A stretch of DNA of 64,000 nt, from contig JAYWCB010000002.1 of NCBI GenBank assembly GCA_043780835.1, positions 27,466 through 91,465 on the forward strand, given 5' to 3'. The translations under genes were made by a program, and so were the position numbers. Origin of the DNA: Minisyncoccota bacterium. Lineage in GTDB: Bacteria; Patescibacteriota; Minisyncoccia; Phycocordibacterales; UBA2100. A model generated the notes under the pieces. That model was not told the origin of the DNA. It did not search any database and saw nothing but the letters and a program-made list of their open reading frames with translations. This document shows positions 37,131 to 62,994 of this stretch, piece by piece. Within the stretch, counting starts at the first letter, position 1. Each line of letters opens with the position of its first letter.

Positions 37131-37134
37131 CAAA

Positions 37135-41908: not shown

Positions 41909-41911
41909 GTG

Positions 41912-43045: not shown

Positions 43046-43047
43046 GC

Positions 43048-45930: not shown

Positions 45931-45933
45931 GCT

Positions 45934-47760: not shown

Positions 47761-47782
47761 AAACCCGGGCGAACCCGGGTTT
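47761..47782. terminator. Hairpin terminator (aaacccgggc-gaa-cccgggttt), strong on the minus strand (followed by TTATTTTTT)
   Basis: Perfect stem between the convergent 45934-47760(+) and 47801-48028(-) genes. Confidence 0.45.
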
Positions 47783-47800
47783 CTAAAACCGTCATTTCAA

Positions 47801-48028
47801 TTACGCGCAGCTTCGTTCACGGCCGCCGCCGTGACCCTTCATACTGCATGAGCCGACGACCTTCTGTACGCCGGACGGGCACGAGCCGCTTTTCACGTAG
47901 ATAACTTGCTTGCAATTGAGCTCACCCGCCGCTGGCTCTGCGCCGAGGGGATTGCTGCGGCTTTGCGCCTGAGCGGCACCGGCGATCAGCGCAACGAACG
48001 TACACGCGAGTATGGTCGAACGAATCAT
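47801..48028 (-). CDS. Small secreted Cys-rich peptide (75 aa precursor)
   Basis: Signal peptide MIRSTILACTFVALIAGAAQA. Mature region with 5 Cys. Strong SD AGGGAGG 6 nt upstream. Paralog-like to 60303-60551 (shared AQSR after signal). Confidence 0.45.
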   Translation of the reverse strand: MIRSTILACTFVALIAGAAQAQSRSNPLGAEPAAGELNCKQVIYVKSGSCPSGVQKVVGSCSMKGHGGGRERSCA

Positions 48029-48145
48029 TGATTCCTCCCTTGATGAGGCTGCCGGTCGTGTGACAGCTGGCGATTTTATACCACATGCTGGCTAAATTGC
48101 AATCTGCTCAATGACCCGATCTCAGCACAGCGGTATACTCTCACC

Positions 48146-49891
48146 ATGTCGCTACTCGCTGCTCGTGATCGTATTAAACGTGCAATCGAAACACGCGCAT
48201 ATGTAGATGTCAGACAAGGTACGATCGTTCAAAGAAACAAACAGGTGAAGACTGAAGGGTGGCTTATCGATATTCGTTCAATACTACTCGATTCTGATGT
48301 ACTCTCTGACATAGCGGAAGTATTTTGGGACTCGTTTCGAGAAATGAACGATGTGCAGATCGGCGGCATTGAAACTGCCGCTATCCCGCTCATTACCTCG
48401 CTTGTTACACATGCAAAGACGTATGCACAGCGCGAACACACATCGGGATTTTATATACGCAAATCACGAAAGAAAGACGGGCTTCTTAAAATGATCGAAG
48501 GAACACTCGTACCGGATGTGCCAGTGATACTCGTAGATGATCTCATCAATAGCGGACAAAGCCTGATTCGTCAGGTTGAAGTTTTACGCGATCACGGCAC
48601 AGCGGTGCACGCGGTGTGGACCCTTGTGCGATTCCGGGATCCTGAATTCTATACGTATTTTTCAGAGCGGAATATTCCAATATATTCGCTATTCACGCTC
48701 AACGATTTTCACGATTCACTTGGCCTGAGCAATCGGACAAGTGGTGCGCTCGACGAGCGATACGCGCCGTTTCGCGTGCTATGGCGGTACGGCTCGCCAC
48801 GCCCGAGTTACCAACACGTGGTTCCAAAATCTGATCCCGTAATCGACGAGCAGCTACTGTTTATTGGATCTGACACCGGTCACATGCGTGCCTTGCGCCA
48901 AAAAGACGGTGGTATCGCGTGGGAGTTTAAAACCGGCACACACGCACACGGCAAAGGTATTTTTTCTACACCAGCGCTCCACAATGGAGTTCTCTATTTC
49001 GGATCGTATGACGGCAATGTATACGCCCTCGATGCAATGACGGGTCGCACGAAATGGACCTATTGGGATGCGGACTGGGTCGGTTCATCGCCCACTCTTG
49101 CACCCGATCTCGGGATACTCTTTATTGGATTGGAATTCGGATTATGGAGAAAACGCGGCGGCATTGCCGCACTCGATATGCGTACCGGAAAGACGGCGTG
49201 GGAACATATAATGCCGTGCTATACGCACTCATCTCCACTGTATATTCCAAAACACGCGCAGGTCGTTATTGGAAGCAATGACGGCGCAGTGTATTTGTAC
49301 AACGCATCCACCGGCACGCTTCTGTGGAAATATGAAAAAGCCGCCCTCACCGCACGCGAGCTCGAAACGGGATTCGGTGAGCGCGACATCAAAGAATCAT
49401 TTGCCTACGACGCAGCGCGCGACATCATTCTGTTTGGCGCCATGGACGGCACGCTGACCGCGCTCGAGCGCTCAACAGGGAGAGCGCTGCGGTCATTCCA
49501 GGCAGAATTCGGCATCTATTCAACCCCCATTATTCACGGTGATACCGTTATTTTTAGCTCTCTCGATAAACATCTGTATTGCCTCAATATTGATACTTTA
49601 GAATTGAAATGGAGGTGGTACGCAGGTGCTCGTCTATTTGCCACGCCAGTTATCATGGGCGGCATGATATATATCGGTGCCAATACCGGGAGATTAACCG
49701 TACTCGACGCTGAATCAGGCCTCGCTCGCACTTATTTCACCGTAAGCGAACGAATCACAAATAGGATTGCATTCAACCCGATCACGCGACATCTTTTTCT
49801 CACAACGTTTGCCAACGAGGTGTACTGCCTTGAGCAACCACCATCAATGGCAGATATTACGAACCTGCCGGCTCGTACCACTGTGGAATAA
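48146..49891 (+). CDS. Orotate-PRTase-like (type I PRTase) domain fused to a PQQ-repeat beta-propeller; paralog of 58610-60253
   Basis: PRPP-binding loop PVILVDDLINSGQSL, PyrE-like IRKSRKKDGLLKMIEG. Then repeated DGNVYALDAMTGRTKW / DGAVYLYNASTGTLLW / DGTLTALERSTGRAL propeller blades. Confidence 0.55.
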   Translation: MSLLAARDRIKRAIETRAYVDVRQGTIVQRNKQVKTEGWLIDIRSILLDSDVLSDIAEVFWDSFREMNDVQIGGIETAAIPLITSLVTHAKTYAQREHTSGFYIRKSRKKDGLLKMIEGTLVPDVPVILVDDLINSGQSLIRQVEVLRDHGTAVHAVWTLVRFRDPEFYTYFSERNIPIYSLFTLNDFHDSLGLSNRTSGALDERYAPFRVLWRYGSPRPSYQHVVPKSDPVIDEQLLFIGSDTGHMRALRQKDGGIAWEFKTGTHAHGKGIFSTPALHNGVLYFGSYDGNVYALDAMTGRTKWTYWDADWVGSSPTLAPDLGILFIGLEFGLWRKRGGIAALDMRTGKTAWEHIMPCYTHSSPLYIPKHAQVVIGSNDGAVYLYNASTGTLLWKYEKAALTARELETGFGERDIKESFAYDAARDIILFGAMDGTLTALERSTGRALRSFQAEFGIYSTPIIHGDTVIFSSLDKHLYCLNIDTLELKWRWYAGARLFATPVIMGGMIYIGANTGRLTVLDAESGLARTYFTVSERITNRIAFNPITRHLFLTTFANEVYCLEQPPSMADITNLPARTTVE

Positions 49892-50726
49892 CATTCACGG
49901 TTCTAGTTTCGGTAATTGTGGTAGGTGTAGCACCGGCTTTTGAATGGCAGAAGAGTGTGTAATCGGTGCGACTCGTGATCGGACTGGTGACTTTCCCTGA
50001 AGGACCCGAGCCTGAAGAAATTCCTGACGTATCCCACGAACCGGTACGACTCCCTGCGGTGCCGTCGCCGTTTGTGCCATGCACCGTGCAGTCACGTACA
50101 TTTGTTACGTTCCAGTAGACGCGTGATGGATCTCCTGAACGTACGAGTGACGGCCGGACTTCGAGATGCCCTGAGGCACTGAATCCTTGCGTCGTGGTAA
50201 ATCCTATAAATTGTGGTGATTGTGGTGGTAGACACGCATTGCCTTGTGCGGTGTACCCGACCGGACATGCTGGACATGCCCCCAATCTGTCGGGCAGGGA
50301 TCCATCCCAACAGGTTGATGCGTACGTGCTTTCGTATGAGCTTTCTGCGGGACCGGAGGCTTGAGAAGGTCCGGAGGCTTGAGAAGGTCCGGAGGCTTGA
50401 GGTGGAGGATATGCGGCTTCGTAGTAACTCGTAACAGGACCGGAGTCTTGTGGTGGCGGATATGAGGCTTGGTAGTAGCTTTGGTAGTACGCCTGATAGT
50501 ACGCCTGATAGTACGCTTCGTAGTAGTCTACGACAGATCCGCCAGATGCGGGCACAACTTGTAAACCCGATGGCGTGGTATCAGTGAAGCGAGCCTCGGC
50601 TGAAACTGCAACATGATGATTCGACACCCCATTCAAGAGAAAATATGCAATTGCAAAAATTGCCGCCGCAAATAATCCATACCGCAGAAAACGGAATACG
50701 GGGCGCCGATGCGTGTGATGAACCAT
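49857..50726 (-). CDS. Anchored Tyr/Gln/Ser-rich repetitive surface protein
   Basis: N-terminal TM. YYQAYYQAYYQSYYQASY and (GPSQAS)n repeats encoded by DNA tandem repeats. Confidence 0.4.
   Translation of the reverse strand: MVHHTHRRPVFRFLRYGLFAAAIFAIAYFLLNGVSNHHVAVSAEARFTDTTPSGLQVVPASGGSVVDYYEAYYQAYYQAYYQSYYQASYPPPQDSGPVTSYYEAAYPPPQASGPSQASGPSQASGPAESSYESTYASTCWDGSLPDRLGACPACPVGYTAQGNACLPPQSPQFIGFTTTQGFSASGHLEVRPSLVRSGDPSRVYWNVTNVRDCTVHGTNGDGTAGSRTGSWDTSGISSGSGPSGKVTSPITSRTDYTLFCHSKAGATPTTITETRTVNVIPQWYEPAGS
50353..50404. repeat. 18-bp tandem repeat (ccggaggcttgagaaggt) x about 2.8 inside CDS
   Basis: Direct perfect repeats encoding GPSQAS units. Confidence 0.55.
50467..50530. repeat. 12-bp tandem repeat (gcctgatagtac and variants) x about 5 inside CDS
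   Basis: Direct repeats encoding AYYQ units. Confidence 0.5.
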
Positions 50727-50747: not shown

Positions 50748-52004
50748 TCAATGCGTCTCTAGAGGAGCGGCTGTGTATAGCGAAGCCCGTCTACCAAGAC
50801 AGACATCGGAATATTTTTTATCAAGCGAGCCGCATCGTTGCGCACGCACAGATGCATCCGGGATGTATATCGAAATACTAGTGGCTAAATCGTTAAAACA
50901 AAAATCCTTTGAACCGTCATCAGCAAGCGTACTGCAAAAACGGAGCGATAATTTCGGATCGGCATCCCCTCCCCAAAAAAAATAGGAGAGTGCATACGAT
51001 TCGCACGCATACGCATCTTCACGTGCTTGAACCAGGTGACACAGACTTTCAACGCGTCGCAACTGCTCATCGGAAAATACACCCTGATCCAGTTTTCGGA
51101 TGTCTTTTTCCCCGACGACACTTACGAAATCTTTTCCAAAACCACCGATACATGAACTGCGGTCCGATCCAAACGGAAGTGCAGTACACGCGCGCATTGC
51201 ATCAGCAAACTTAGACGTGTCTTTCGTACGGAAATCAGATCCTACTGCCGCCAAAAGATGCGGAGTGATGTACACATAACATCGTGCCTTTGCACTCTGC
51301 GGAATAAGCCGCGTCGAGCATGGCGCGAGTGGATCTGAGGCGGTGAAATACGTGGCGTTTGCCTTTTTCCATAGCTCTCGGTCATGGCCGCCCCCGCCCA
51401 CTAATTCCATTATGGATCCTCCGATACACTCCTGCGATTGCATATATTTCCATTCAGCCGTACCGGTTTTCGAACAAAAGCTGATTGTCTTTTCCAAGGA
51501 ATACCCATAATAGGCAAGTACACCATGACCAAGCCCGTGGTAACACATGCCATATGCGCTTTTCCCGCCCGGTGCTTTTTTACATGCAGTGTCGATCATG
51601 GCGCGCACGTCGTCTCCGTCACCGAATTCCTGCAGCGTATCGACGACAATCGAATGTGAGCAACCATTTCTGAATTCCTGCGTGCAGATTGACATGCCGT
51701 CGATTCCCTTCTGTGCATAGAGTTTATGTCCGATTGCATGTGCAACGAGATGAATATCTGTATTCGGCGGAATTACCGCATACCGAAGCACACCGAATGC
51801 GTATTCGGCACCTTTTTTATCGGCAATGTCTTCGAATCGTTTTACGAGCACATCAAATGTCGGATTATCCGCCGCAATAGTCTTTACTTCCGCATATGTT
51901 GCCTCACCGTCGGCCACGTGTACCTTTGACTCTTTTAGATATGCCCCAGCGGCACCCGCGAGCAGTACGAGCAATACAACTATCAGATGTTTCGTCGAAG
52001 TCAT
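50748..52004 (-). CDS. Large secreted Cys-rich hypothetical protein
   Basis: Signal/TM MTSTKHLIVVLLVLLAGAAGA. About 18 Cys. Confidence 0.4.
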   Translation of the reverse strand: MTSTKHLIVVLLVLLAGAAGAYLKESKVHVADGEATYAEVKTIAADNPTFDVLVKRFEDIADKKGAEYAFGVLRYAVIPPNTDIHLVAHAIGHKLYAQKGIDGMSICTQEFRNGCSHSIVVDTLQEFGDGDDVRAMIDTACKKAPGGKSAYGMCYHGLGHGVLAYYGYSLEKTISFCSKTGTAEWKYMQSQECIGGSIMELVGGGGHDRELWKKANATYFTASDPLAPCSTRLIPQSAKARCYVYITPHLLAAVGSDFRTKDTSKFADAMRACTALPFGSDRSSCIGGFGKDFVSVVGEKDIRKLDQGVFSDEQLRRVESLCHLVQAREDAYACESYALSYFFWGGDADPKLSLRFCSTLADDGSKDFCFNDLATSISIYIPDASVRAQRCGSLDKKYSDVCLGRRASLYTAAPLETH

Positions 52005-52034: not shown

Positions 52035-52817
52035 TTATTCACGAATCCCCTTTGCTGTGGCTGCTGATTCTATTTTCTGTAGATTTTGATGTGCTGCGTT
52101 TCGTAACGTTTCAAGGCCGGTTTCTGCCGCATCCGGAGCATTTCCGGGATATGCTGCGTGCCACTGTGCAGGTGTAATACCATCAACCGCCGCTGTTGCA
52201 CGCCGTGCCGCAACAAGCGCTTCGCGCAGTTTTCCTTGTTCAAAAAAGATCGTAGCGCGCACGCTCAGAAGCCATGGATTGTCTGGATACCGACTAAGTC
52301 CCGCGTCGACTACGATAAGCGCTTCGTCCAGCTTTCCTGTTTTGATCAAAACCCAGGCATAGTCTGTTCGGCCTTCCCAACCACCGGGATTCAGCTCCAC
52401 ATACGTTTTGTAATCTCGGGCGGCAGCATTGTAATCATTGAGATACCCCTCTATAAGACCGCGTAGATAGTACGCACTTGAACGAGATGTGTGGGTGTTA
52501 TTTTGGATTTCAATATTTACTTCTGCAAGTGCTTCGTGATACTCGCCGTTCAAAAAATGAATCCGCGCCAATTGATGGTGCACGAGCGGATATTGTGGAT
52601 CCAGGTGCGCCGCCCGTGAAAAGAAATATGCAGCTTCCGCTAAATCATATTCTGACTCATTCGGTCGGTCGATATGCTGCAGGCCGTATGTATAGGCGAG
52701 CTCTGCGCGCGGATGAAGTTTGAGATGCAGTCGTTCCCGTATGGCTCCGGGATCAATAAGAAATAGTCCGATAATAAATACAGCGGCTACAGTACATGAA
52801 ACGAGGGAGCGAGTCAT
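52035..52817 (-). CDS. N-terminally anchored TPR-repeat protein (paralog of 41096-41908)
   Basis: TM plus TPR; shared YPDNPWLLSVRATIFFEQGK block. Start trimmed to MTRSLV. Confidence 0.5.
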   Translation of the reverse strand: MTRSLVSCTVAAVFIIGLFLIDPGAIRERLHLKLHPRAELAYTYGLQHIDRPNESEYDLAEAAYFFSRAAHLDPQYPLVHHQLARIHFLNGEYHEALAEVNIEIQNNTHTSRSSAYYLRGLIEGYLNDYNAAARDYKTYVELNPGGWEGRTDYAWVLIKTGKLDEALIVVDAGLSRYPDNPWLLSVRATIFFEQGKLREALVAARRATAAVDGITPAQWHAAYPGNAPDAAETGLETLRNAAHQNLQKIESAATAKGIRE

Positions 52818-52833
52818 GAGCGCATTGTACTGT

Positions 52834-53637
52834 TTAGCGCGTACTAGATGTCGCGTTCTTTTGTATAGCCGCATGGATAAGCTTGATATTTCCCGCTATT
52901 GCTTCGCGCAGTTTTTCTATACCCTTTGCACCCATAGAAGGGTCGTTGCCTGGATTTACTTTGGCCCAATCATCTGGTTCAAGCAGTTGCGCCGCTTTGG
53001 CGGCTGATTCTGCAACGGCACGTGATTCATCGTAACGACCCATCTCATAGAGCGCCGTCGCTTTACTGTTCAGCAGCCATGCGTTTCCCGGTGTATATGC
53101 CAAGCCGGTGTCGAGCGCGACAAGCGCCTCCGTAAATTTATGCTCCTTCAGTAATATCCATGCGTAATCGTTGAATCCCGGCCAATTGTGCGACCCGCCT
53201 TTTAAGTATGTTTCGTAATCAGCCTGCGCCTCGGGATATTTGCCGAGGAATCCGTACGTAAGAGCGCGTACATAATACGAACTCGGTCTGGAATCAGGGT
53301 GGAGGTTTATTTGCAGTGTAATTTCGGCTAGCGCGGCATTGAGCATCCCTATGATGAACGACGTTCTCGCGAGCTCATGATATGCCATCGGATAGTTCGG
53401 ATCGAGTGCGACGGTTTTTAAATAGTACTGTCGCGCTCGACGAACATCGTATGCGCGATTCGGGACGGGTCCAAAATGATGCTCGGCAATTTCAAAAGCG
53501 TGTGCCGCCGTCGGTGAATGCATAAACGACACGTCTTCGTACGTATTTAAGATTTTTGTGCGCAAGGGCATTCGAAATGCGATCGCAAATACGACAGCAC
53601 ATAAAGACACAACAAGCATCATCTGTCGCGTGACCAT
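52834..53637 (-). CDS. N-terminally anchored TPR-repeat protein (third paralog)
   Basis: TM plus TPR; TPGNAWLLNSKATALYEMGR block. Start trimmed to MVTRQM. Confidence 0.5.
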   Translation of the reverse strand: MVTRQMMLVVSLCAVVFAIAFRMPLRTKILNTYEDVSFMHSPTAAHAFEIAEHHFGPVPNRAYDVRRARQYYLKTVALDPNYPMAYHELARTSFIIGMLNAALAEITLQINLHPDSRPSSYYVRALTYGFLGKYPEAQADYETYLKGGSHNWPGFNDYAWILLKEHKFTEALVALDTGLAYTPGNAWLLNSKATALYEMGRYDESRAVAESAAKAAQLLEPDDWAKVNPGNDPSMGAKGIEKLREAIAGNIKLIHAAIQKNATSSTR

Positions 53638-53668
53638 GACGCAAGTATACTGCGGTTCCCTCGCGGTG

Positions 53669-54196
53669 TTACTGATGCTCATCGACACCGGAAAATCCAT
53701 GTGGAATGTTATTTCCTTCTATCGGCAGTCCTTCGAGTGACCAATTTTCGAGCCCTCCTTTGATGCGAATAAGATTGAGAAAGCCCCAATTTTCCAAATA
53801 TCCATACGCGATTCCGGCAAGCCTGCCGCTCGTGCAAATCAGCGCAATCTTTTTACCGTGCTTCGGCAAGGTAAAATGTTCATCAATGAGATTTTCAATC
53901 GGTATATTTATCGCGCCAACTGCGTGGGCGGAATTGTAGACAGTCGTCGATCGCACATCGATCAACATATACTGATCGCGGTGCTGAGAATAATCAGCAT
54001 AAAACTCCTTCGGATCGATATCGTTTGATATCGGGGCGATCAGTGTGAGGTGTTTGAGTGGCGTCAGATAGATGAGCAGTATCGTCACAACAATGACGCC
54101 GATGAGTGATGCAATAAACATGAAGCGATCATCGAAAAGACTTACAGAGCCGTCTGCCTCTGCTTTTGCTCGATTCGAAAAATATCGTTTTAACAT
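53669..54196 (-). CDS. Membrane-anchored rhodanese-domain protein (paralog of 41912-42370)
   Basis: LIDVRSTTVYNSAHAVGAINIP...IALICTSGRLAG (Cys loop CTSGRLA). Confidence 0.7.
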   Translation of the reverse strand: MLKRYFSNRAKAEADGSVSLFDDRFMFIASLIGVIVVTILLIYLTPLKHLTLIAPISNDIDPKEFYADYSQHRDQYMLIDVRSTTVYNSAHAVGAINIPIENLIDEHFTLPKHGKKIALICTSGRLAGIAYGYLENWGFLNLIRIKGGLENWSLEGLPIEGNNIPHGFSGVDEHQ

Positions 54197-54200
54197 AAAA

Positions 54201-54899
54201 TTATTTTTTCCCTAAGAGATAGCTGATACTCGTCGCAATCTGCGAACGGTAATCCCCTTTTATGATGATACTGCGTCCTGCGGATTTCAAAACAATAGAC
54301 GGTGTTACGTCGAGTCCGGCAATTGCACCTTGGACCATGTCACGCCTTACCCGATCGGCGGGAGTTTGATTTTTTACACATTGATCGAATGACGCCGGAT
54401 TGACCCCGACGTTCACTGCGAAACGCGTGAGCGTCACCGGATCGACTGGTCCCTCGAGCCGAGGAGAGCTGTAGACATCTGTTACGAAGGTATCAAATGC
54501 CGCCGCGCCACGATCATTAAATACGCACTCGGCGGCAATCGCCTCACCATACGCACCCGTGTGCTTTGGCAGCGGCAGATGACGAAATGCGATCAATAAT
54601 GTATTGGCGAACTCTTTCTGCAATGCGGGGAGAGTCTGCAAATAGAGATGTTTGCAATACGGACAATCAAGATCCGAATACACAATCATTTGAACCGGAG
54701 CTTTCAAATCACCGGAATATATATGATCGTCTGCGGCCACACCAATAACCGCAAGCGGTGATTGATCATCAACGGTCCGGACCTGTTCGAGCGCACGCTT
54801 ATTATGCAAAACAGCCAGTAGAATAAATACACCGATACCGACCGCAGAAATTACTAAGATTAGAATTTTCGAATCACGTTTGATTTTGGAACTTCGCAT
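54201..54899 (-). CDS. Membrane-anchored DsbA-like thiol:disulfide oxidoreductase (paralog of 42371-43045)
   Basis: CPYC active site in YSDLDCPYCKHLY. Confidence 0.7.
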   Translation of the reverse strand: MRSSKIKRDSKILILVISAVGIGVFILLAVLHNKRALEQVRTVDDQSPLAVIGVAADDHIYSGDLKAPVQMIVYSDLDCPYCKHLYLQTLPALQKEFANTLLIAFRHLPLPKHTGAYGEAIAAECVFNDRGAAAFDTFVTDVYSSPRLEGPVDPVTLTRFAVNVGVNPASFDQCVKNQTPADRVRRDMVQGAIAGLDVTPSIVLKSAGRSIIIKGDYRSQIATSISYLLGKK

Positions 54900-54906
54900 G
54901 GAACCG

Positions 54907-56031
54907 TTACTGTGCGAAGTCGCTTGGCTGCCAGCCGAGCGATATCAGATACGCCTTGAATGAAGGTGCAATATCGGCAATTTTAATCAGTGCCATATGA
55001 TTATATTGCGCCTGATTGTTTCTTCGAACACTTCTGAAGAAGCCTTCGACTGATTGAACATACGTATTTTTAACACCCGTCACAGGTTTGAGCGTGGACA
55101 CGGTAGATATAATTTCGTCCGCTCGCGATTCGCCATAGAACGTCGCGAGTGCAGCCGCGTATAAATAGCGCGGGTAGCTGTCCTGCCCCGGTACGGTGGC
55201 GGCAGTAGCTGAAAGGCTGAGCGCGTCTCGGAAAGGCGCAATCACGTCCTCAATCTTTGCAACACCTGCAGTCGCAAGTTTACGCTCCACAATTCCTTCT
55301 CTTGTGAGGGCATCTATAAGCGGACCGGTTTCGTTTGCATCTTTGCGCATGCGATCAAGCTCGGGTTGCGCCTGCGATTGTAGTTCTTTAATTTTCGCGA
55401 TGTCTGCAATGCCTGCGGGACTGGTACTTGCGTTGTGTAATGTTTTTGATAGGTCCGTCGCATACCAATCCGCTTGACGCATAAGAGAAGGAGCGAGCAG
55501 GTAGAGCGAAGAAGCGTACTCATTCAAGCGTCTGAGCGCCATTTCGGTATCGACACCTTGCGCCATCTCTGCGTAGGGTGAATCTTTGAAAATCTCATCG
55601 CTCACCTCAGGATGGGAATAATTATATGTGTAGTAGAACGATGCGAGCTGTTGCACGGCATACGCTCTTATTTGCTTGAAATATCGCTCATTTGAAGCGA
55701 TTGATTTATATTGAGCTATAGCGTTGGCAAAATCCCCGCTCTCCTCAGTCGCGAGCGCAATTTTAAACCGAATTTGTGCTTCTGCTTGCGGATCAGAAGC
55801 ATTGGCAAGAGATGCCTGAAGTGCCTGCTTTGCCTCATCATACTGGCCTGCTTTCATGAGAGTCATCGCGTGAGAAAACGACTGATCTTCTTGGGTCAGT
55901 ACTTTATACGGCGTGCGAGATGCATCGTATTGATTTTGAGATCTTACGGCGGCAAACCAATACACCAAAAGTGCAACCGCGATAACGAAGAGGACGCCGA
56001 GTGCGAGTGATATATCTTTTCGTAGATTCAT
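54907..56031 (-). CDS. N-terminally anchored helical-repeat (TPR-like) protein (paralog of 43048-44211)
   Basis: TM plus helical repeats. Confidence 0.4.
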   Translation of the reverse strand: MNLRKDISLALGVLFVIAVALLVYWFAAVRSQNQYDASRTPYKVLTQEDQSFSHAMTLMKAGQYDEAKQALQASLANASDPQAEAQIRFKIALATEESGDFANAIAQYKSIASNERYFKQIRAYAVQQLASFYYTYNYSHPEVSDEIFKDSPYAEMAQGVDTEMALRRLNEYASSLYLLAPSLMRQADWYATDLSKTLHNASTSPAGIADIAKIKELQSQAQPELDRMRKDANETGPLIDALTREGIVERKLATAGVAKIEDVIAPFRDALSLSATAATVPGQDSYPRYLYAAALATFYGESRADEIISTVSTLKPVTGVKNTYVQSVEGFFRSVRRNNQAQYNHMALIKIADIAPSFKAYLISLGWQPSDFAQ

Positions 56032-56034
56032 ACA

Positions 56035-56310
56035 TTAGCCGCAACTACCGCCACTACCACCACTATCACATCCGGATCCACTGTCACTTCCTCCGGCGCT
56101 TCCGGCTCCGGAGTCAACCACTTCTGCGTGAACAGTTCCTGCGCCCAACACAGTGTCGCTCAAATGAGCAGATGATTTTGGCGAAGCCGTATAAAAGAGT
56201 ACGGTAAAAAATCCCACGGCTATGATGGAAGCTGCGGTTATCTTTCGGTAGTATCTGGAAAACGTCGAAATACCTTGTACGAGAAATGCCATATACGTAT
56301 TATTCCACAA
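56035..56310 (-). CDS. Small anchored peptide with Gly/Ser/Cys-rich C-terminal tail (candidate RiPP/TOMM-type precursor)
   Basis: TM AASIIAVGFFTVLFYTASP, conserved TVHAEVVDS, tail GAGSAGGSDSGSGCDSGGSGGSCG. Divergent from the YcaO-SagB genes. Confidence 0.45.
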   Translation of the reverse strand: MWNNTYMAFLVQGISTFSRYYRKITAASIIAVGFFTVLFYTASPKSSAHLSDTVLGAGTVHAEVVDSGAGSAGGSDSGSGCDSGGSGGSCG

Positions 56311-56399
56311 AAAGACGAATTGCTATGCAACCTGCTTCCAATTTGGGGATAATAGCTATTTCTTTGCTCAACAAAGACTGACTTGATATTATATCCTGG

Positions 56400-57839
56400 A
56401 TGATTCTTGATGCTGAGCTGTTTACTGTAGTCAAGAATGCCCACAATACGGACAGTTCTCAAAGTCCGATCGCGCGGTTTATTGCCTACATTGAAAAAAA
56501 ACTCGGCGTTGTTGTAGCGTACGATAAACACGACCTGCCCTATGGAAGGACAGATCTTTCGCAACAATTTACACTTGCTGCAAAACTTGAACACGCCGGT
56601 ATCCTTCGCACGTTCGGTCCAATCATTCCATTGGCGGACGAACCGCAAATGCGCTTATGGGGAACCCGCGACACGACCGATCAACACGCCGGTGGCGCAA
56701 CAATGAATGACGACGCGGCGGCATTGACCGCAGCGCTTGCAGAGGGTTTGGAGCGCTCAATTTGGAGAACGAAAAACGATTATTTTGACGGTGCTATCCG
56801 TGCGACAGTCGGAGAAATTGCGATCAAAGGCAGGTACATCGCCCCAAAATCCTTTGCAAGTTTCTCTGAGGAGCAGCGGGAAGGAAACTCACAACTACGC
56901 CTGCCTCCGGAAGCAACGTACACATGGATTAAGGGTAAATCATTGGTATCAAACGAAGCAACCTATGTGCCTGCTCAGACCGTGAGCGGTAATCGCGCCT
57001 GGCTTACCGATCCGTACAGTGAACCACGAATCCGTATACCGATTACCATCGGTCTCGCCACGTGGCCTACACGATCGGGTGCGCAACTCGCCGGCGCACT
57101 GGAAGTGATCGAACGAGAGGCGTATATGATTATGTGGCTCAACCAGCTCACGCTTCCCCACATTCGCTTGGAAGATTTACAAGCAAAGTACCCCGAACTT
57201 GAATCGGTATTATCTGACTGTAAACGATATCGCATCAAGCCGCACGTGATACCCATGCTTACCGATGCACCTGTGCATGCGGTCAGTGTCATTTTAGAGG
57301 ACATGTCGGGCAACGCACCCCGTTTTATTATCGGGTTAAAAGCCCATCGGTCGTTTGCGCTTGCGGTCGAAAAAGCCATTACCGAAGCCCTTCGTGGACG
57401 AGCATTTTGCCGAAGAGATTTTCTTCCCAAGGGCGACTGGGACACCTCGCGATCCGTAGACACCGTTGGTCATTATGAGCGACTCTATTATTGGAGCCAT
57501 CCGCAAAACGCGCGCAAATTGGAATTTCTGGTGAGCGGCGCGGAAATAGCCGTGCCGGAAACAACATGGGAAAATTTGTCGATCGAGGAACATCTCAAAA
57601 TGGTTACCGCATGGTGCGCGACGAATCAATTCGATTGCATTTCGGTATCATTGAGCACTAAAAAAAACAATCCCACGTCTTGGTACATTGAAATGGTGGT
57701 TATCCCGCAACTGCAACATACGTATCTCGACGAAAAACTCCGTCAACTCGGTGGAACGCGCCGCTTAGAGGTACCGAAACTGTTCGGCTATTCACCACGA
57801 CCCGCACCATACCTTGACGACCCTCATCCGTACGCATGA
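56400..57839 (+). CDS. YcaO-domain protein (ATP-dependent peptide-backbone-activating enzyme; cyclodehydratase/thioamidase family)
   Basis: GGATMNDDAAALTAALAEGLERSIW matches the YcaO ATP-binding region (G.G......A..SAL.EA.ER, ExxER). About 480 aa, typical size. Confidence 0.6.
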   Translation: MILDAELFTVVKNAHNTDSSQSPIARFIAYIEKKLGVVVAYDKHDLPYGRTDLSQQFTLAAKLEHAGILRTFGPIIPLADEPQMRLWGTRDTTDQHAGGATMNDDAAALTAALAEGLERSIWRTKNDYFDGAIRATVGEIAIKGRYIAPKSFASFSEEQREGNSQLRLPPEATYTWIKGKSLVSNEATYVPAQTVSGNRAWLTDPYSEPRIRIPITIGLATWPTRSGAQLAGALEVIEREAYMIMWLNQLTLPHIRLEDLQAKYPELESVLSDCKRYRIKPHVIPMLTDAPVHAVSVILEDMSGNAPRFIIGLKAHRSFALAVEKAITEALRGRAFCRRDFLPKGDWDTSRSVDTVGHYERLYYWSHPQNARKLEFLVSGAEIAVPETTWENLSIEEHLKMVTAWCATNQFDCISVSLSTKKNNPTSWYIEMVVIPQLQHTYLDEKLRQLGGTRRLEVPKLFGYSPRPAPYLDDPHPYA

Positions 57840-58596
57840 GCATATGACGATTTTTCTTTCACATCTGCATACTGCTTTACGCGCAACGCGATTCACCCGC
57901 CGAGGCGCGACGCGTCGACCTGAAGACGTGCCGCAAGGCACACATAAAGAATACAGTCGTATGGAACGTATTTCACTGCCGGAACCCGTGGTATTGGATA
58001 TTTCTCTACCCGAAGCGCTCTCCCGCCGTGTTTCATCACTGAATCAGGGTGGGGATACGCCGCTTTCGCTGCAGGATATTGGCACCGTATTTGGACTTGC
58101 GCTCAGACAGCACGCCGATTCGAATCACAGAAATTATCCGTCCGGTGGCGCACTCTATCCGATTGAAACGTATTTGATTGCAACATCACTGGAAGGTGCG
58201 GCTCCCGGGGTGTACCACTATCACCCCTCTGCACATGCACTTGAATACTTATGGGAACTCGAGCCGAATTTTGATATCACCCGACTCGTTCAGAAACCGG
58301 AGTTTCTCTTACCTTCCGCACTGATCGTGTTCACGAGTGTATGGCGTCGATCATCCGCAAAATACGGCGATTTCACGTACGGACTTTCATTACTCGAGGC
58401 AGGCCACATGTCGGAAAACGTGCTTCTCGTCTCAAGTGCACTCAAGCTCCAGGTGCGCCCCATGGCAGGATTCGACGACCAGCGAACGAATGATCTTTTG
58501 GACCTTGACCCTGATCTCGAGCAAGCGGTGCACTCTATTACGCTTTCGAAAGGCGCGCATGTGCAGACTCGCGCCCGTATGGATGCAGACGAATGA
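57814..58596 (+). CDS. SagB/McbC-type FMN-dependent dehydrogenase (nitroreductase fold)
   Basis: Hallmark NYPSGGALYPIETY (PSAGALYP-type motif). Size about 250 aa. Start may be the second Met at 57844 to avoid overlap with ycaO. Confidence 0.6.
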   Translation: MTTLIRTHEHMTIFLSHLHTALRATRFTRRGATRRPEDVPQGTHKEYSRMERISLPEPVVLDISLPEALSRRVSSLNQGGDTPLSLQDIGTVFGLALRQHADSNHRNYPSGGALYPIETYLIATSLEGAAPGVYHYHPSAHALEYLWELEPNFDITRLVQKPEFLLPSALIVFTSVWRRSSAKYGDFTYGLSLLEAGHMSENVLLVSSALKLQVRPMAGFDDQRTNDLLDLDPDLEQAVHSITLSKGAHVQTRARMDADE

Positions 58597-58609
58597 GCAA
58601 TGCTCGTGT

Positions 58610-60253
58610 ATGACCGCACAAGAAAAATTATTTCATCATGCAATCGCTGCCGGGGCTTTTATCCGCTCAAACGCGATAACTCCCATCATTCGATCCGAGC
58701 ATACCGGTGATCGGGATGAGTGGATATTTGATTTCAGAGCAATCATGCTGCAACCGACATGGCTTGCCTGCTACGCTGAACTATTCTGGGAACGATTCGC
58801 GACTCAGTACCCGTTTCAAGTGGGAGGACTTGAAACGGCATCAATCGCACTTATTACTGCAATCGTGATGAAAGGAATTGAGCGAGGCACACCAGTAAAT
58901 GGGTTTTATGTGCGAAAGTCGCGAAAACGACAGGGACTTATGAAACAAGTGGAGGGCACGCTGACCGATGATCCGATCGTACTCGTTGACGACCTCATAA
59001 ATTCGGGACAATCCTTCCTTCGACAACTTGAGATCCTCGAAAGTCTGGGGAAAACCGTTCGGGACGTGTTCGTAATCCTCGCGTTCCGCGACGATGCGAC
59101 CTATCACTTTTTAAACGATCGTGGTGTTCGTTTTTCAAAACTGTTTACGGTTGCTGATTTCGATATTCCACTCCTCAAGGAAACACCGGATGTCCCGGAT
59201 GATGCATTTGTTGAACATTGGTTGTATGCGCCGCAGCACATGAGTCACTATAATGTGGTACAAAAATCAGCTCCCATCCTGTTCGAAAACCTCATTCTGT
59301 ACGGCGGCGACGATGGTATCTTTCGAGCACTCGATAGCGAACATGGAACCGTCGTATGGAATTTTAAAGTAGGACGACATCCGGATGGAAAAGGAATATT
59401 GTCCTCGCCGTGCATATACAACGGCACGGTATTTTTTGGCGCGTATGACGGTAACGTATACGCGCTCAATGCGCGCAGCGGTACGCAACAATGGCAATAC
59501 GACCACGCAGATTGGATCGGTTCATCTCCTGCGGTAGCAGGAAAATTTGGAGTCATATGTATCGGTCTTGAATTCGGATTGTTCAGAAAGAGAGGCGGCA
59601 TCGCCGCGATCGATATTGCGACCGGTGTCGAACGGTGGAACGCACCACATGCAGCCCTTACCCACGGTTCGCCACTCTACATCGAATCAGAAGACATCGT
59701 CGTCATTGGCGATAATGACGGTGTCGTATACGCATATCGTGCTTCTGACGGTGAACTGTTGTGGCGAACACCGTGCGATAGTGACATCAAGACGACTCCT
59801 GCATATGACGCAAAACGTAAACAGATACTGTGCGGCACGATCAAAGGAACTCTCTATGCATTGTCCGTACACAACGGTTCTCCGATGCGCGCGTTTTCGA
59901 CTGCGGGATTTTATTCGATACCGCTCGTGATTGATGATGTGGCCTACGTTGCATCGCTCGACAAGCACCTGTACGCCCTCGATCTCGTCAGTTGGAAGCC
60001 GCGATGGGAGTTTCGCACCAATGGCCGCATTTTTGCATCGCCTCGCCTCTTCGACGATTCGGTATGGATCGGCTCCAACGACGGCAGACTCTACGAGATC
60101 GATCCGAAGACAGGCACGCTCATTCGTTTTTTCCAAACGACCGAAAGAATTTTGAACGCGGTCGAGTATGACGCATCGTCAAAAAAGATATATATTCCGA
60201 CATCATCGAACGGCATGTACTGCATATCTAAAAAGATGGGTGCGGATGCATAA
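58610..60253 (+). CDS. Orotate-PRTase-like domain fused to PQQ-repeat beta-propeller (paralog of 48146-49891)
   Basis: PIVLVDDLINSGQSF, FYVRKSRKRQGLMKQVEG, DGNVYALNARSGTQQW propeller blades. Start trimmed to MTAQEK after the SagB stop. Confidence 0.55.
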   Translation: MTAQEKLFHHAIAAGAFIRSNAITPIIRSEHTGDRDEWIFDFRAIMLQPTWLACYAELFWERFATQYPFQVGGLETASIALITAIVMKGIERGTPVNGFYVRKSRKRQGLMKQVEGTLTDDPIVLVDDLINSGQSFLRQLEILESLGKTVRDVFVILAFRDDATYHFLNDRGVRFSKLFTVADFDIPLLKETPDVPDDAFVEHWLYAPQHMSHYNVVQKSAPILFENLILYGGDDGIFRALDSEHGTVVWNFKVGRHPDGKGILSSPCIYNGTVFFGAYDGNVYALNARSGTQQWQYDHADWIGSSPAVAGKFGVICIGLEFGLFRKRGGIAAIDIATGVERWNAPHAALTHGSPLYIESEDIVVIGDNDGVVYAYRASDGELLWRTPCDSDIKTTPAYDAKRKQILCGTIKGTLYALSVHNGSPMRAFSTAGFYSIPLVIDDVAYVASLDKHLYALDLVSWKPRWEFRTNGRIFASPRLFDDSVWIGSNDGRLYEIDPKTGTLIRFFQTTERILNAVEYDASSKKIYIPTSSNGMYCISKKMGADA

Positions 60254-60282
60254 AAAGGCCGGCATCAATTGCCGGCCTTTTG
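60253..60282. terminator. Bidirectional terminator (aaaaggccggc-atcaatt-gccggcctttt)
   Basis: Perfect 9-bp stem flanked by A/T tracts between convergent genes. Confidence 0.55.
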
Positions 60283-60302
60283 CGAAGAACTGAACGAAAA
60301 GA

Positions 60303-60551
60303 CTATTTCATCTTGCCGGAGGATGTGCTCATGCTCTTCCACTGTTCGGATCGTGCGTTCGGTTGGTCGTTCACGAACTCTTTCGACGGCGTACAACTGG
60401 ACGAACAGGAAACGGCGCCTGGCATGTACTTGCTACACCACGCGACGCACGTAATTTTTCCTGCCGGACGGGATTGTGCGAGCGCCTCGCTCAGCGAGCC
60501 ACTGACTACCAGCAATGCCATGAGGGCAGATTTAGTAAGTAATTTCTGCAT
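60303..60551 (-). CDS. Small secreted Cys-rich peptide (82 aa precursor)
   Basis: Signal peptide MQKLLTKSALMALLVVSGSLSEALA. CVAWCSKYMPGAVSCSSSC. Strong SD AAGGAGG 6 nt upstream. Confidence 0.45.
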   Translation of the reverse strand: MQKLLTKSALMALLVVSGSLSEALAQSRPAGKITCVAWCSKYMPGAVSCSSSCTPSKEFVNDQPNARSEQWKSMSTSSGKMK

Positions 60552-60670
60552 CGCATCCTCCTTGAAGGTGATGTATCGCTTGATGCACTTTCTCAACCAC
60601 CAAAGTATTCTATAACTTAGAATCCTCCCGACGTCAATGGGTCTATTTATTCGGGGCGGGGCGATAATGA

Positions 60671-61216
60671 TTGCGCGGTATGCGATCTCGCTTCGATCAA
60701 TTTTCTTTCACAGCCGGTGTTTGTGTTGCGCTCCTTGTTCTCTGTTTCGGTGCTTGGTTTGGAATAGGAAAAATATTTTTTGCAATCGTGTTTGATCCAT
60801 CACTTCCGGCGCTCTCGCGTGTATCGTTTGCGAGATCACTCCTTTTTGGAGCGTTCACTGATAAACCCCTCGTGGAGTTGGCGTATCTTGTGAGCGTTGC
60901 AGTTCTTATCGGGGTGAATGCCACACTCACGAGCACCTACATTCGAACCTATCGCAAACTGGAAACATCATATGGCATATCGAGCGGTCTGCTTGGCCTT
61001 GTCTCCGCTGTGCTCGGTTTTGGGTGCGCCGCATGCGGCTCCCTCGGTGCAGGATGGGCACTGGCGTCTGTCGGTGCCGGTAGCCTTATCGCGGCACTTC
61101 CCTTTGGCGGCATTGAGTTACGCGTGAGTGCCCTCGCACTTCTTGCACTATCATCATATTTTATGATCCGCGAGCTTCGCCGCGCGCAGTCATATATGAA
61201 ATCATCGAAATCGTGA
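60671..61216 (+). CDS. Hypothetical polytopic membrane protein
   Basis: 4-5 hydrophobic helices. Confidence 0.4.
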   Translation: MRGMRSRFDQFSFTAGVCVALLVLCFGAWFGIGKIFFAIVFDPSLPALSRVSFARSLLFGAFTDKPLVELAYLVSVAVLIGVNATLTSTYIRTYRKLETSYGISSGLLGLVSAVLGFGCAACGSLGAGWALASVGAGSLIAALPFGGIELRVSALALLALSSYFMIRELRRAQSYMKSSKS

Positions 61217-61241: not shown

Positions 61242-61898
61242 ATGCAGCTCTACAGTGCCTTGCTCGATAGAAAGAGTAACGCTGTATTAATTGCCAGTAC
61301 CCACATATCCGCAATCGTTTTTTTGAATAAACACGTACCGGATACGGTTCACTGGCCGCTCGTACAAAGTCCAAATCATGAGCAGTCGTTTCCGCTTCAT
61401 GGCCTCGTGCCTGAACAGTATCCCAACTGGCACTGGGATGAAAAAGCCCGATTGTTCAGTCAGACTACCCCGCATGACGTTGCAGAAGCGCTCAGGGAGC
61501 GCGCGCAACTTACGGCAGCAAAATTCGGCGCGATTTCGAAAGTTATGTTTAATATCAATGCAGCGAGATACCAGAACCGGTCGGGAATAGAATTTCAAGA
61601 AACAGTTTATCTATTGAAGCGATTACAAGCCGAGGGATTCATCGCATCAAATTACGACGAGTCTCGCGCATCTGAATTTCCTCTTGTGGTGCAGTACGCG
61701 GATTTCTCGGGTTGTACCCTGCGCACAGCGGCGGACGACATTCGCTTTAAAGCGCGCTTGTACGAAGACCTGCTCGCAAAAAGCGAAATTCTACGCATGA
61801 AATATTTTCAGTTGATCGGCGATGCTGCCGAATCAGCGCTTCCGGAAATTTTAGGGGAATTTTATCGAGACTGCTACGAAAACGCACTCGTCGCATAA
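61242..61898 (+). CDS. Hypothetical protein
   Basis: ORF only. Confidence 0.3.
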   Translation: MQLYSALLDRKSNAVLIASTHISAIVFLNKHVPDTVHWPLVQSPNHEQSFPLHGLVPEQYPNWHWDEKARLFSQTTPHDVAEALRERAQLTAAKFGAISKVMFNINAARYQNRSGIEFQETVYLLKRLQAEGFIASNYDESRASEFPLVVQYADFSGCTLRTAADDIRFKARLYEDLLAKSEILRMKYFQLIGDAAESALPEILGEFYRDCYENALVA

Positions 61899-61908: not shown

Positions 61909-62994
61909 ATGAACAATCTTCTGTATTTCAACGCAGGCGTCACTGCACACTCACCTCTCCCCGGCATGAAAATGCTTTCGGGGCTCGCAAAGATTTTTAA
62001 AACGCGAGTAACGTTCGTGGATCGCAGCAATACCATCGCATCTCCGCTGCGAACTCAATCACTCTTTCCCCTTCCAGTCATGCGCACTTTTTCAAAGACG
62101 TACGAAAACATATGTGATGAACGTGCTGTTGAATTACTGACCACGGCAACCAAGCGCGGCTGCAAAATATATGTATCGTGGTCGGGCGGTATTGATTCCA
62201 CCACAGCGCTCGTTTCACTGCTGAAGCACGCAACCGTGGAACAAAGAAAATCGATTGTGGTACTCCTTACAGAGGACTCGATATTTGAAAATCCGGTATT
62301 TTATCGAGAGCATATACGAGGGCACCTTGCGCGGGAGTCGTCAATGCTGCTCCCGTATCTCGTCGGGGATGATCATATTTTCGTGAGCGGAGAACTCAAT
62401 GACCAATTGTTCGGTGCTGAAACAACAAATGGATTGATTAAACGATTCGGGCCGCACGCACCGCACAAAGCGTATGACAGAGATATGCTGCACACCTATT
62501 TTTTGGAAAAGAGCGGGGATGAAACTCTCACGACATTTTATCTGAATTTGTTCGAACGCATGCGGGACAATGCTCCGATTGATGTGGTCTCGAATCACGA
62601 TATGATTTGGTGGTTCAGTTTTGCCGTTAAATGGCAATCGGTGTACTACAGAGCGGTTTCATACGCCAGCACGCACAGCCTTCCGAAGATTTCGGCGGCA
62701 TATTTACATGAATCATTTACCCCGTTCTTTAATACGGAGGACTTCCAACTCTGGAGCATGCTCAACCCCGATAAAAAAATCGGTGATGGGTGGCACACCT
62801 ATAAATGGCCCGCGAAAGACATTATCTACAAATTTACCAAAGACGAACACTATCGCGATACCAAACTAAAATCAGGGTCGCTATCACTCGTGACGCTTCG
62901 CATGCACTCATATCGTTTTATTGACGACGACATGTGTTTTTCAGATACGATCAATCTCGACGATTACCACAATCCCATCAATGACTTCGTTTAA
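61909..62994 (+). CDS. PP-loop (SGGxDS) ATP-pyrophosphatase family protein (QueC/AsnB-C-terminal-like adenylating enzyme)
   Basis: KIYVSWSGGIDSTTALVSL PP-loop motif. Confidence 0.5.
   Translation: MNNLLYFNAGVTAHSPLPGMKMLSGLAKIFKTRVTFVDRSNTIASPLRTQSLFPLPVMRTFSKTYENICDERAVELLTTATKRGCKIYVSWSGGIDSTTALVSLLKHATVEQRKSIVVLLTEDSIFENPVFYREHIRGHLARESSMLLPYLVGDDHIFVSGELNDQLFGAETTNGLIKRFGPHAPHKAYDRDMLHTYFLEKSGDETLTTFYLNLFERMRDNAPIDVVSNHDMIWWFSFAVKWQSVYYRAVSYASTHSLPKISAAYLHESFTPFFNTEDFQLWSMLNPDKKIGDGWHTYKWPAKDIIYKFTKDEHYRDTKLKSGSLSLVTLRMHSYRFIDDDMCFSDTINLDDYHNPINDFV

Follow-up and report, generated by a model that had tools for sequence, protein, structure and literature searches.

A candidate ribosomal-peptide maturation island with a YcaO enzyme, a SagB-type dehydrogenase and signal-anchored precursor-like peptides in the S10 operon of Paceibacteria

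What does a bacterium with a very small genome make with a YcaO enzyme and a SagB-type flavin mononucleotide (FMN) dehydrogenase whose genes diverge from that of a small membrane-anchored peptide? The question is raised by a stretch of 64,000 nucleotides from a Minisyncoccota bacterium (GenBank assembly GCA_043780835.1, contig JAYWCB010000002.1, positions 27,466 to 91,465), here called the window and numbered from its first letter, in which an earlier note had proposed an undescribed peptide-maturation system. Every feature that the note named was found again, at its coordinates or close to them. The reading favored here, to which we give a probability of about 58%, is a ribosomal-peptide maturation system specific to the Paceibacteria, a lineage of the candidate phyla radiation (CPR), in which YcaO and SagB would convert a peptide with a signal-anchor leader into an exported linear azole-containing peptide (LAP). 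The island, its ribosomal boundary and its three central genes are as follows.

39809-63553: the island as contained in the window; rpsJ (S10) lies past the window end
39809-40582, minus strand: rplC (L3), the island boundary on the ribosomal-operon side
56400-57839, plus strand: YcaO, a stand-alone cyclodehydratase-type enzyme of 479 amino acids (aa)
57844-58596, plus strand: SagB-type FMN dehydrogenase; the open reading frame (ORF) is callable from 57814, and 57844 is the probable start
56035-56292, minus strand: PEP2, the precursor-like peptide; the ORF reaches 56310, and the ATG at 56292 is the probable start; the tail carries TVHAE and then VVDSGAGSAGGSDSGSGCDSGGSGGSCG

The comparison set consisted of three contexts retrieved through YcaO homologues and 27 more loci found by scanning a single genome for each species, about 30 in all (numbered L below), and two further independent loci, L083 and L084, were retrieved only through a membrane protein called TMx (see below). 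Family counts per locus come from profile searches, built from the window proteins and run against all ORFs of the roughly 30 loci. An island of YcaO, SagB and small anchored peptide was found in many Paceibacteria genomes, and at the same ribosomal-operon site. L3 and L4 flank it in nine loci and S10 lies at the opposite side in ten, with both flanks seen in L001 (4539-19345), L009 and the P0006 contig. The rplC and rpsJ genes are normally neighbors within the S10 operon, and because both flanks are visible in these three cases the island is interpreted as an old insertion between them. It is inherited vertically at one chromosomal locus, unlike typical antibiotic gene clusters.

The order of genes within the island is also well kept. 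The consensus on the peptide side is [L4-L3]-T168-S289-TPR-(rhodanese-DsbA)-X38-peptide, running in the opposite direction to the YcaO side, where it is YcaO-SagB-(TMx-small membrane protein)-PRTase/propeller-(M181, or U218-PP361). The peptide gene lies directly upstream of YcaO and divergent from it at 23 of the 30 YcaO genes that have sufficient upstream sequence, the exceptions being mostly second YcaO copies; SagB directly follows YcaO in 33 of 37 cases, and X38 comes right after the peptide gene in every one of 30. The same block was found in the three contigs retrieved via YcaO homologues and in the two loci retrieved through TMx. Since the arrangement recurs in about 30 independent loci, it goes beyond what chance would produce. 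Scans for tRNAs, Rfam families, promoters and terminators returned nothing informative.

The identity of the YcaO enzyme, as given in the earlier note, was borne out by a match to PF02624 (E 4.9e-40) and by the Glu/Arg residues of the ATP/Mg motifs (E115, E118, R119, E235, E238 and R239), which are invariant in 25 homologues together with a C-terminal P-H-P; a Pro-rich C-terminus is a mark of azoline-forming YcaOs. The best NCBIfam model is TIGR03604, the SagD family (E 1.4e-42), with a score of 146 bits that falls under the trusted cut-off of 219.25 bits. An AlphaFold2 (AF2) model of the protein, with a pLDDT of 90.5, found its best Foldseek matches in LynD, MusD and TruD (E 2e-21), followed by methanogen YcaOs, the E. 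coli YcaO and McbD, the last also a significant match. The ranking by sequence profile agrees, with MusD (PDB 7u58) as its top match and also among the top matches by fold. About 150 homologues at 40-53% identity were found, all of them in CPR assemblies of Parcubacteria/Paceibacteria type. The N-terminal 100 aa were considered as a hidden RiPP recognition element (RRE; RiPP, a peptide that is ribosomally synthesized and then modified post-translationally) and rejected as such: in the AF2 model and the Foldseek search they match only YcaO proteins, and because the match to LynD spans almost the whole query, these residues belong to the YcaO fold.

The second enzyme, described in the earlier note as a dehydrogenase of SagB/McbC type, scored 114.7 bits with TIGR03605, above the cut-off of 78.4, and its motifs R.YPSGG and KYG..Y...LEAGH are kept in 34 homologues. 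Dehydrogenases of the thiazole/oxazole-modified microcins (TOMMs) have the Lys-Tyr pair as their catalytic motif. In the family checks that had been proposed for the two enzymes, PF02624 and TIGR03605 were matched, the latter above its cut-off, and TIGR03604 was matched below it.

The prominence of MusD among the matches raises the possibility of another amide-activating chemistry acting on the peptide, for example ATP-dependent cleavage of peptide bonds as reported for MusD, or amidine formation, with SagB in a non-canonical role. The best profile hit, 7u58, is titled "YcaO-mediated ATP-dependent peptidase activity", and a leader protease is not encoded in the island. MusD is, however, also an enzyme of the heterocyclase type and has E1 and RRE domains that are lacking here, and the conservation of SagB with its KY motif favors azoline oxidation, so that such a chemistry appears highly improbable.

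The best substrate candidate for YcaO and SagB, judged from sequence and position, is the divergent small gene. PEP2 has a K/R N-terminus, a hydrophobic helix, a linker, the TVHAE motif and a core of Ser, Gly, Cys and Asp, and it belongs to a family of 36 members in 29 of the roughly 30 loci, with two more in the independently retrieved loci. Throughout the family a K/R-rich N-terminus is followed by a hydrophobic helix of 19 aa, with a Kyte-Doolittle mean of 1.6-2.7 and GF at its center, then by a linker of 15-24 aa and a nearly invariant A-x-A-[D/E] motif, which is mainly AHAD, with variants AQAD, AYAD, AFAD, ALAD, ANAE and VHAE, and after which [A/V/T]-P usually comes. The shape of this motif is that of a signal-peptidase-I site. 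The leader is thus hydrophobic and resembles a membrane anchor across the family, as the earlier note had said of the single peptide then in view. An N-in/C-out topology is predicted from the flanking charge, with K+R averaging 3.3 on the N side and 1.5 on the C side and the N side higher in 27 of 34 peptides. The conserved GF invited comparison with type IV pilins, a reading that was discarded on finding GF in the middle of the helix and no Glu at +5.

The cores that follow are 14-97 aa long and of biased composition (Gly 29%, Ser 19%, Cys 12%, Asp 10%, Ala 10%). Cys is present in 31 of 32 cores and at least two Cys, Ser or Thr in all, and the cores of L003, L019 and L027 closely resemble those of microcin B17 or other azole peptides; together with the divergent arrangement, the Cys/Ser/Thr content supports the small gene as substrate candidate. 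The PEP2 tail itself is as the earlier note gave it. The same note had looked to orthologues for conservation of the Cys/Ser positions, and here the expectation failed: composition is conserved, as in other RiPP cores, and positions are not. Since only layout and composition are kept, a positional test is unsuited to this family. Two members stand apart. In L012 (2275-2730), where a same-strand YcaO adjoins, repeats of (Glu-Gly)n and (Gln-Gly)n, with two Cys, make up nearly the whole core; in L016 (1-612) the peptide ORF continues past the Gly/Ser/Cys region for about 90 residues of non-repetitive sequence, to be explained either by a fusion or by an overlooked stop or a frameshift.

It could be that two separate modules share one site, with the minus-strand operon serving the envelope or surface and the substrate of YcaO and SagB lying elsewhere, for example in a ribosomal protein. 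The position of the island between rpsJ and rplC, in the S10 operon, lends itself to this idea, as do the predicted location of the core outside the cell and the existence of peptide-X38 cassettes that lack an adjacent YcaO (window 43048-44492; L014 and L025), which also weigh against the azole-peptide reading. In E. coli, YcaO has been associated with a modification of the ribosomal protein S12. For uL16, a thioamide has been reported (PMC7550191). Set against this, the divergent adjacency of peptide and YcaO is found at 23 of 30 genes despite YcaOs that are only 36-53% identical, duplicated YcaOs bring duplicated peptide genes with them (L003, L004 and L010), and the core composition fits known azole-peptide cores. 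We also know of no ribosomal-protein-modifying role for a SagB-type dehydrogenase. Two unconnected modules are therefore judged unlikely, and the divergent peptide is retained as the substrate candidate.

The peptide gene heads a minus-strand operon with the following further members.

54907-56031, minus strand: X38, helical, N-terminally anchored, 374 aa (about 380 in the family), with only sub-threshold hits to tetratricopeptide repeat (TPR) families
54201-54899, minus strand: anchored DsbA-like thioredoxin-fold protein with CPYC (Thioredoxin_4, E 3.3e-15)
53669-54196, minus strand: anchored single-domain rhodanese with a CTSGR loop (PF00581, E 2e-12; PspE-like hits)
52834-53700, minus strand: anchored TPR protein, with several TPR families above cut-off
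52035-52874, minus strand: anchored TPR protein, a paralogue of the preceding one, with TPR hits
50748-52004, minus strand: C418, Cys-rich, anchored or secreted, 418 aa, without a Pfam or NCBIfam hit
49857-50726, minus strand: S289, a secreted Cys-rich protein with a conserved C-terminal domain ending in ...VNxxPxxxE

The constant partners of the peptide are X38 (30 of 30) together with a single TPR protein or two, the family of the 52834-53700 gene occurring in 20 loci. The picture of anchored operon partners drawn earlier stands for the rhodanese with CTSGR, DsbA with CPYC and two TPR proteins; the supposed third TPR protein, at 54907-56031, gave sub-threshold hits alone. A search for homologues of X38 returned five proteins, and no polar residue of catalytic type is invariant in the family, which led to the rejection of X38 as an enzyme.

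The rhodanese and DsbA had been taken as wired into the system. The rhodanese, whose loop C-[TA]-[SG]-G-R is kept in eight homologues, always lies beside DsbA, and no more than 7 of about 30 loci have the pair; both are accessory and do not belong to the core, and they are predicted to face outward. The presence of DsbA showed no association with the Cys content of the core across loci. The rhodanese bears on a further explanation, already raised in the earlier note, in which YcaO would thioamidate the peptide in the manner of McrA or thioamitide enzymes with the rhodanese as sulfur donor. Two rhodaneses in the window have an intact active-site Cys, and the fold search also matched thioamide-forming methanogen YcaOs. 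The rhodanese, however, is N-terminally anchored, PspE-like and DsbA-paired, so that it probably acts outside, and it is missing from most loci; being accessory and probably outward-facing, the pair makes rhodanese-fed thioamidation unlikely. TfuA was not found among the scanned proteins or loci, SagB is almost always present, and the thioamidation model TIGR03266 gave YcaO 52 bits, about 94 bits under the TIGR03604 score of 146. Azole formation is thus favored over thioamidation from the sequences, in accordance with the weight that had been placed on SagB, and thioamidation appears the least probable of the chemistries considered here.

The Cys-rich secreted proteins raise a different alternative, in which the S289 or C418 proteins are the true substrates, or the peptide stays as an uncleaved surface tail, and the system is one of protein modification. 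Both proteins are Cys-rich, co-transcribed and widespread: the S289 family occurs in 17 loci with lengths of 263-1474 aa, and the C418 family, marked by repeated H-x-x-G-H motifs, has 15 copies in nine loci. The want of an encoded leader protease and dedicated exporter, and the vertical inheritance at one locus, fit such a role. On the other hand, many loci with peptide, X38, YcaO and SagB have neither S289 nor C418, which are in any case large folded proteins with ordinary N-terminal export signals, and the near-invariance of A-x-A-[D/E] suggests processing. Protein modification in this sense is considered quite unlikely. The DsbA, the rhodanese and the small membrane protein M181 (see below) may nevertheless serve S289 and C418 at least as much as they serve the peptide.

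A second cassette (40593-49891) lies directly upstream of rplC. The earlier note had overlooked it, as it had the gamma-carboxylase-like membrane proteins encoded there and the fixed place of the island within the S10 operon.

44208-44474, minus strand: PEP1, the second of the precursor-like peptides, having the motif VAHAE and the core AIVVDVSTGGDDDDCGGDAGGSGDADDG
43048-44211, minus strand: X38 paralogue, 387 aa
42371-43045, minus strand: DsbA-like protein copy 1, with CPHC and an N-terminal hydrophobic helix
41912-42370, minus strand: rhodanese copy 1, with a CAGGR loop
41096-41908, minus strand: anchored TPR protein of this cassette
40593-41099, minus strand: T168, which has a signal peptide and is anchored at its C-terminus; its gene directly precedes rplC
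44497-45930, plus strand: TMx-1, a membrane protein of polytopic type whose beta domain faces outward, with a gamma-carboxylase-like fold
45934-47760, plus strand: TMx-2, a paralogue of TMx-1 fused to a small membrane protein
48146-49891, plus strand: phosphoribosyltransferase (PRTase)/beta-propeller fusion copy A, 40% identical to copy B (see below)

The PEP1 core is Asp-rich, with nine Asp and one Cys in 28 aa. TMx-1, TMx-2 and PRTase-propeller copy A are divergent from PEP1, as YcaO is from PEP2, and the window system appears to have been duplicated and then split, one half keeping TMx and an Asp-rich, Cys-poor peptide and the other YcaO/SagB and a Ser/Cys-rich peptide. The C-terminal segment of TMx-2 is a separate gene for a 64-72 aa membrane protein in other genomes. 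The T168 family occurs in nine loci and always adjoins L3.

The TMx family has no detectable relatives by ordinary sequence comparison: nine members gave no Pfam hit even at E 10, and there was no NCBIfam or PDB sequence hit. It comprises 668 representative clusters, or 473 clusters at 90% identity, without a Pfam domain in any; every source name shown was "hypothetical protein", from assemblies of Parcubacteria/Paceibacteria type. The AF2 model (pLDDT 85.9) has one specific structural relative, the human vitamin K-dependent gamma-carboxylase (GGCX), matched by Foldseek with E 1e-6 and probability 1.0 over 473 aligned columns; the fold match was obtained by two methods and covers both the membrane domain and the outward beta domain. 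One distant member gave a marginal match to PF22777, the carboxylase lumenal domain (E 0.0077), and K177 and K196 are invariant in the family. Because TMx lies between SagB and the PRTase-propeller gene in L004, L008, L011, L013 and L017, and also in L083 and L084, it is counted as a full component of the YcaO operon. Asp is more abundant in cores that lie no more than 6 kb from TMx (0.20 versus 0.12; Mann-Whitney p = 0.016), a comparison of 6 with 26 peptides that ignores phylogeny and is to that extent a weakness of the argument, so that the association of Asp-rich cores with TMx is suggestive only.

From these components a two-compartment pathway can be imagined, in which a partner-less YcaO and SagB would form azoles in the cytoplasm and TMx would carboxylate or otherwise modify Asp residues outside, helped by the TPR and redox proteins. 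Taken as a whole, this elaborate version is rather unlikely. To our knowledge, no bacterial gamma-carboxylase homologue has an established ribosomal-peptide substrate. One such homologue, MloH, carboxylates an aspartyl residue, according to a work cited in a 2026 preprint. In the literature searched, no paper joined YcaO with a gamma-carboxylase-like protein, or HTTM proteins with YcaO-type RiPPs.

The favored azole-peptide reading can be set out as a sequence of steps. The precursor would carry a Sec-type signal-anchor leader, made up of the K/R N-terminus, the helix, a 15-24 aa "propeptide" and A-x-A-[D/E], in front of a low-complexity core. In the cytoplasm, YcaO would activate backbone amides with ATP and cyclize Cys (and Ser) to azolines, which the SagB flavoprotein would oxidize to azoles, yielding a linear azole peptide without an E1-like or RRE-bearing partner. 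The modified peptide would then be inserted or exported in the N-in/C-out orientation and handled outside by the anchored helical-repeat X38 and TPR proteins, probably with a cut at A-x-A|[D/E]. Where present, TMx would add a further modification, possibly carboxylation of Asp, for which MloH offers a precedent, and in some genomes the set of DsbA, rhodanese and CxxC membrane protein could provide outside thiol redox for the remaining Cys of the peptide, of the secreted Cys-rich proteins, or of both. The product would be an acidic, azole-bearing peptide, secreted or surface-displayed, and a candidate metallophore or host-directed effector.

Several points weigh against this reading, and one concerns partners. 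Azoline-forming YcaOs usually need a partner of E1-like or Ocin-ThiF-like type. A Pfam scan of 34 window proteins (20 of them also scanned with NCBIfam) found no E1-like, Ocin-ThiF-like, RRE, TfuA, protease or ABC exporter family, and no MNIO (DUF692) enzyme or DUF2063 partner appeared among the Pfam families of the scanned proteins. Unbiased clustering of the unassigned ORFs of the 30 loci likewise gave no E1-like or RRE partner, TfuA, protease or exporter, and yielded only S10, other ribosomal proteins, CapK-like enzymes and a second family with an SGG motif. Neither at the loci nor in the YcaO structure model, then, was an E1-like or RRE-bearing partner found, fused or separate, as had been remarked from the window alone. 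The block also encodes no dedicated export or immunity genes and no leader protease, the last of which counts on the same side.

The peptide itself supplies further difficulties. Leaders have an average pairwise identity of 0.25 and cores one of 0.31, so that leaders are no better conserved, and the description "conserved leader, hypervariable core" was dropped as a numerical statement. The A-x-A motif lies 15-24 residues past the helix, compared with 3-7 residues in the ordinary signal peptides of the window (T168 and the 75-aa and 97-aa peptides described below), and because of this distance cleavage by signal peptidase I is uncertain. The cores of PEP1, L008 and L011 contain a single Cys. 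The order of modification before export is assumed, and the hydrophobic leader should carry the core away from YcaO and SagB. To these are added the YcaO score under the TIGR03604 cut-off, the cassettes without an adjoining YcaO and the unexplained roles of PRTase-propeller, U218, PP361 and M181; and all of the proposed chemistry is read from genes.

The genes downstream of SagB, and two small ORFs near the PRTase-propeller genes, are the following.

58610-60253, plus strand: PRTase (orotate phosphoribosyltransferase (OPRTase)-like)/PQQ-type beta-propeller fusion copy B, with the phosphoribosyl pyrophosphate (PRPP) motif VDDLINSG
60671-61216, plus strand: M181, a small membrane protein of polytopic type in which LGFGCAACG (CxxC) is invariant
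61242-61898, plus strand: U218, always paired with PP361, in five loci
61909-62994, plus strand: PP361, with an invariant WSGGIDST, a PP-loop-like motif
60303-60596, opposite strand to the PRTase-propeller gene: ORF for a 97-aa secreted Cys peptide with a signal-peptide-like N-terminus
47801-48028, opposite strand to PRTase-propeller copy A: ORF for a 75-aa secreted peptide

The OPRTase-like/beta-propeller fusion proposed earlier was recovered with Pfam and NCBIfam hits, with its start moved: comparison with homologues, which also gave the starts of SagB and PEP2 listed above, places its probable beginning at 58610 and not at 58337. The family occurs in 21 loci, its PRPP motif VDDLxNSG is intact in 21 homologues, and an export signal is absent. 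M181 accompanies DsbA in five of the seven DsbA loci, has no Pfam match, and gave nothing significant in a profile search against the PDB; it was accordingly not accepted as a homologue of VKOR or DsbB, and, given that search, any role is a guess from the CxxC motif and the co-occurrence with DsbA, namely that it may be a recycling partner of the DsbB/VKOR type. U218 had no family hit and no PDB hit. PP361 gave marginal matches to PP-loop families (E 0.01-0.18) and no PDB match, and its WSGGIDST is invariant in four homologues. Two separate orphan families with motifs of the SGG type, WSGGIDST and FSGGMEGE, recur in the window, L009 (12515-13423), L010, L011 and L017.

Each PRTase-propeller gene is followed by a small ORF on the opposite strand that encodes a signal peptide ending in A-x-A-QSR and several Cys. 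The 97-aa and 75-aa products show no significant similarity to each other, so that the idea of a paralogous pair was given up, and neither has homologues in the related loci. The secreted Cys-rich peptide that had been thought to complete the locus is therefore present as an ORF with a signal-like N-terminus, and was found at no related locus.

Other variable genes were seen at or near the island. CapK/PaaK-like adenylating enzymes, often in tandem, lie beside it in L011, L012, L015, L024, L028 and L083 (11564-14220); L084 has two methyltransferases, and L083 a fusion of ATP-sulfurylase and APS-kinase; all are possible variable tailoring genes. The S10 operon is broken at a second point, between rpsS (S19) and rplB (L2), where the window (36634-37803) holds an opposite-strand ORF of 107 aa together with one of 222 aa that is alpha/beta-hydrolase-like (GHSFG motif); insertions at this point are also found in L001 and the P0006 contig. 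Elsewhere in the window (17790-20600), a 936-aa protein with a C-terminal domain of the TraG/TraD coupling-protein type may point to part of a type IV secretion or conjugation system.

Among known systems, microcin B17 (McbA with McbBCD) and other LAPs likewise combine a YcaO cyclodehydratase with a SagB/McbC-type FMN dehydrogenase; the cores are likewise rich in Gly, Ser and Cys, several from related loci bearing a striking likeness to McbA, and McbD is a significant fold match of the present YcaO. The island differs in having no McbB/SagC-type E1-like RRE partner, a hydrophobic signal-anchor in place of a soluble leader, cores that are rich in Asp as well, extracytoplasmic partners, no dedicated export or immunity genes, and a fixed, vertically inherited chromosomal site. 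LynD, TruD and MusD, the closest solved structures and profile hits of the YcaO domain, are azoline-forming fusions of about 780 aa with N-terminal RRE and E1-like domains, which the 479-aa enzyme lacks.

Calling the system undescribed, as the earlier note did, went too far. Clusters of YcaO and nitroreductase, classed as LAP by antiSMASH, were reported in 2020 from 93 CPR genomes, of which 51 were Parcubacteria (Sharrar et al. 2020, PMC7298704), so that the enzyme pair was already known in this lineage. Those clusters have a YcaO, an adjoining nitroreductase and a nearby small precursor, as in the island, and they very probably include the present family; the case treated in detail is from Microgenomates and has a peptidase, and the description is at the level of antiSMASH. 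So far as the paper could be read, it gives no account of a signal-anchor leader or of an operon of X38, TPR, DsbA and rhodanese, nor does it mention the gamma-carboxylase-like protein, the PRTase-propeller or the S10 position. In the literature searched as a whole, the signal-anchor precursor family, the constant X38 and TPR partners, the RRE-less state, the gamma-carboxylase-like protein, the PRTase-propeller and the fixed rpsJ-rplC position were not found described.

Three further comparisons concern the extracytoplasmic side. Single-domain PspE-like rhodanese beside a DsbA-like protein, both anchored or exported here, recalls the PspE/DsbA pathway; PspE can feed the E. coli disulfide-bond pathway, and what sets the present pair apart is co-transcription with a RiPP-like precursor. 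The precursors of gamma-carboxyglutamate (Gla) proteins, the substrates of GGCX, share with the present peptides a layout of signal, propeptide and acidic substrate region, and TMx is predicted to resemble GGCX in fold, without significant sequence similarity save the marginal lumenal-domain match. A hydrophobic Sec-like leader is rare among RiPPs, with the bufferins as a precedent. In the bufferins, which have a Sec signal and bind copper as metallophores, Cys is heterocyclized in the cytoplasm, export is by the general pathway and a disulfide forms afterwards, with a membrane redox protein encoded in the cluster (PMC11626156); they are thus a precedent for modification before Sec export and for possible metal binding. 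Their enzymes are unrelated (MNIO/DUF692 with DUF2063), their chemistry gives 5-thiooxazole, and they are folded proteins of small size whose signal peptide is canonical and cleaved, so that the resemblance would be one of pathway logic only.

If the favored reading is true, azole peptides would be widened to include a YcaO acting without an RRE/E1 partner on Gly/Ser/Cys cores, a hydrophobic Sec-like leader, and a coupling to enzymes that finish the product outside the cytoplasm, among them a protein related to GGCX at the level of fold that no sequence model recognizes. Should the two-compartment version hold, a ribosomal peptide of bacteria would for the first time be seen to undergo gamma-carboxylase-type modification, and ultra-small CPR bacteria would have, encoded in the S10 operon, a surface or metal-binding factor that is conserved and vertically inherited. 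The locus also offers testable functions for the orphan CPR families X38, TMx, PRTase-propeller, M181 and PP361. Because very small genomes keep an island of 10-25 kb, often duplicated, its product is suggested to matter for the lifestyle of the Paceibacteria, where it could serve host contact, metal handling or antagonism.

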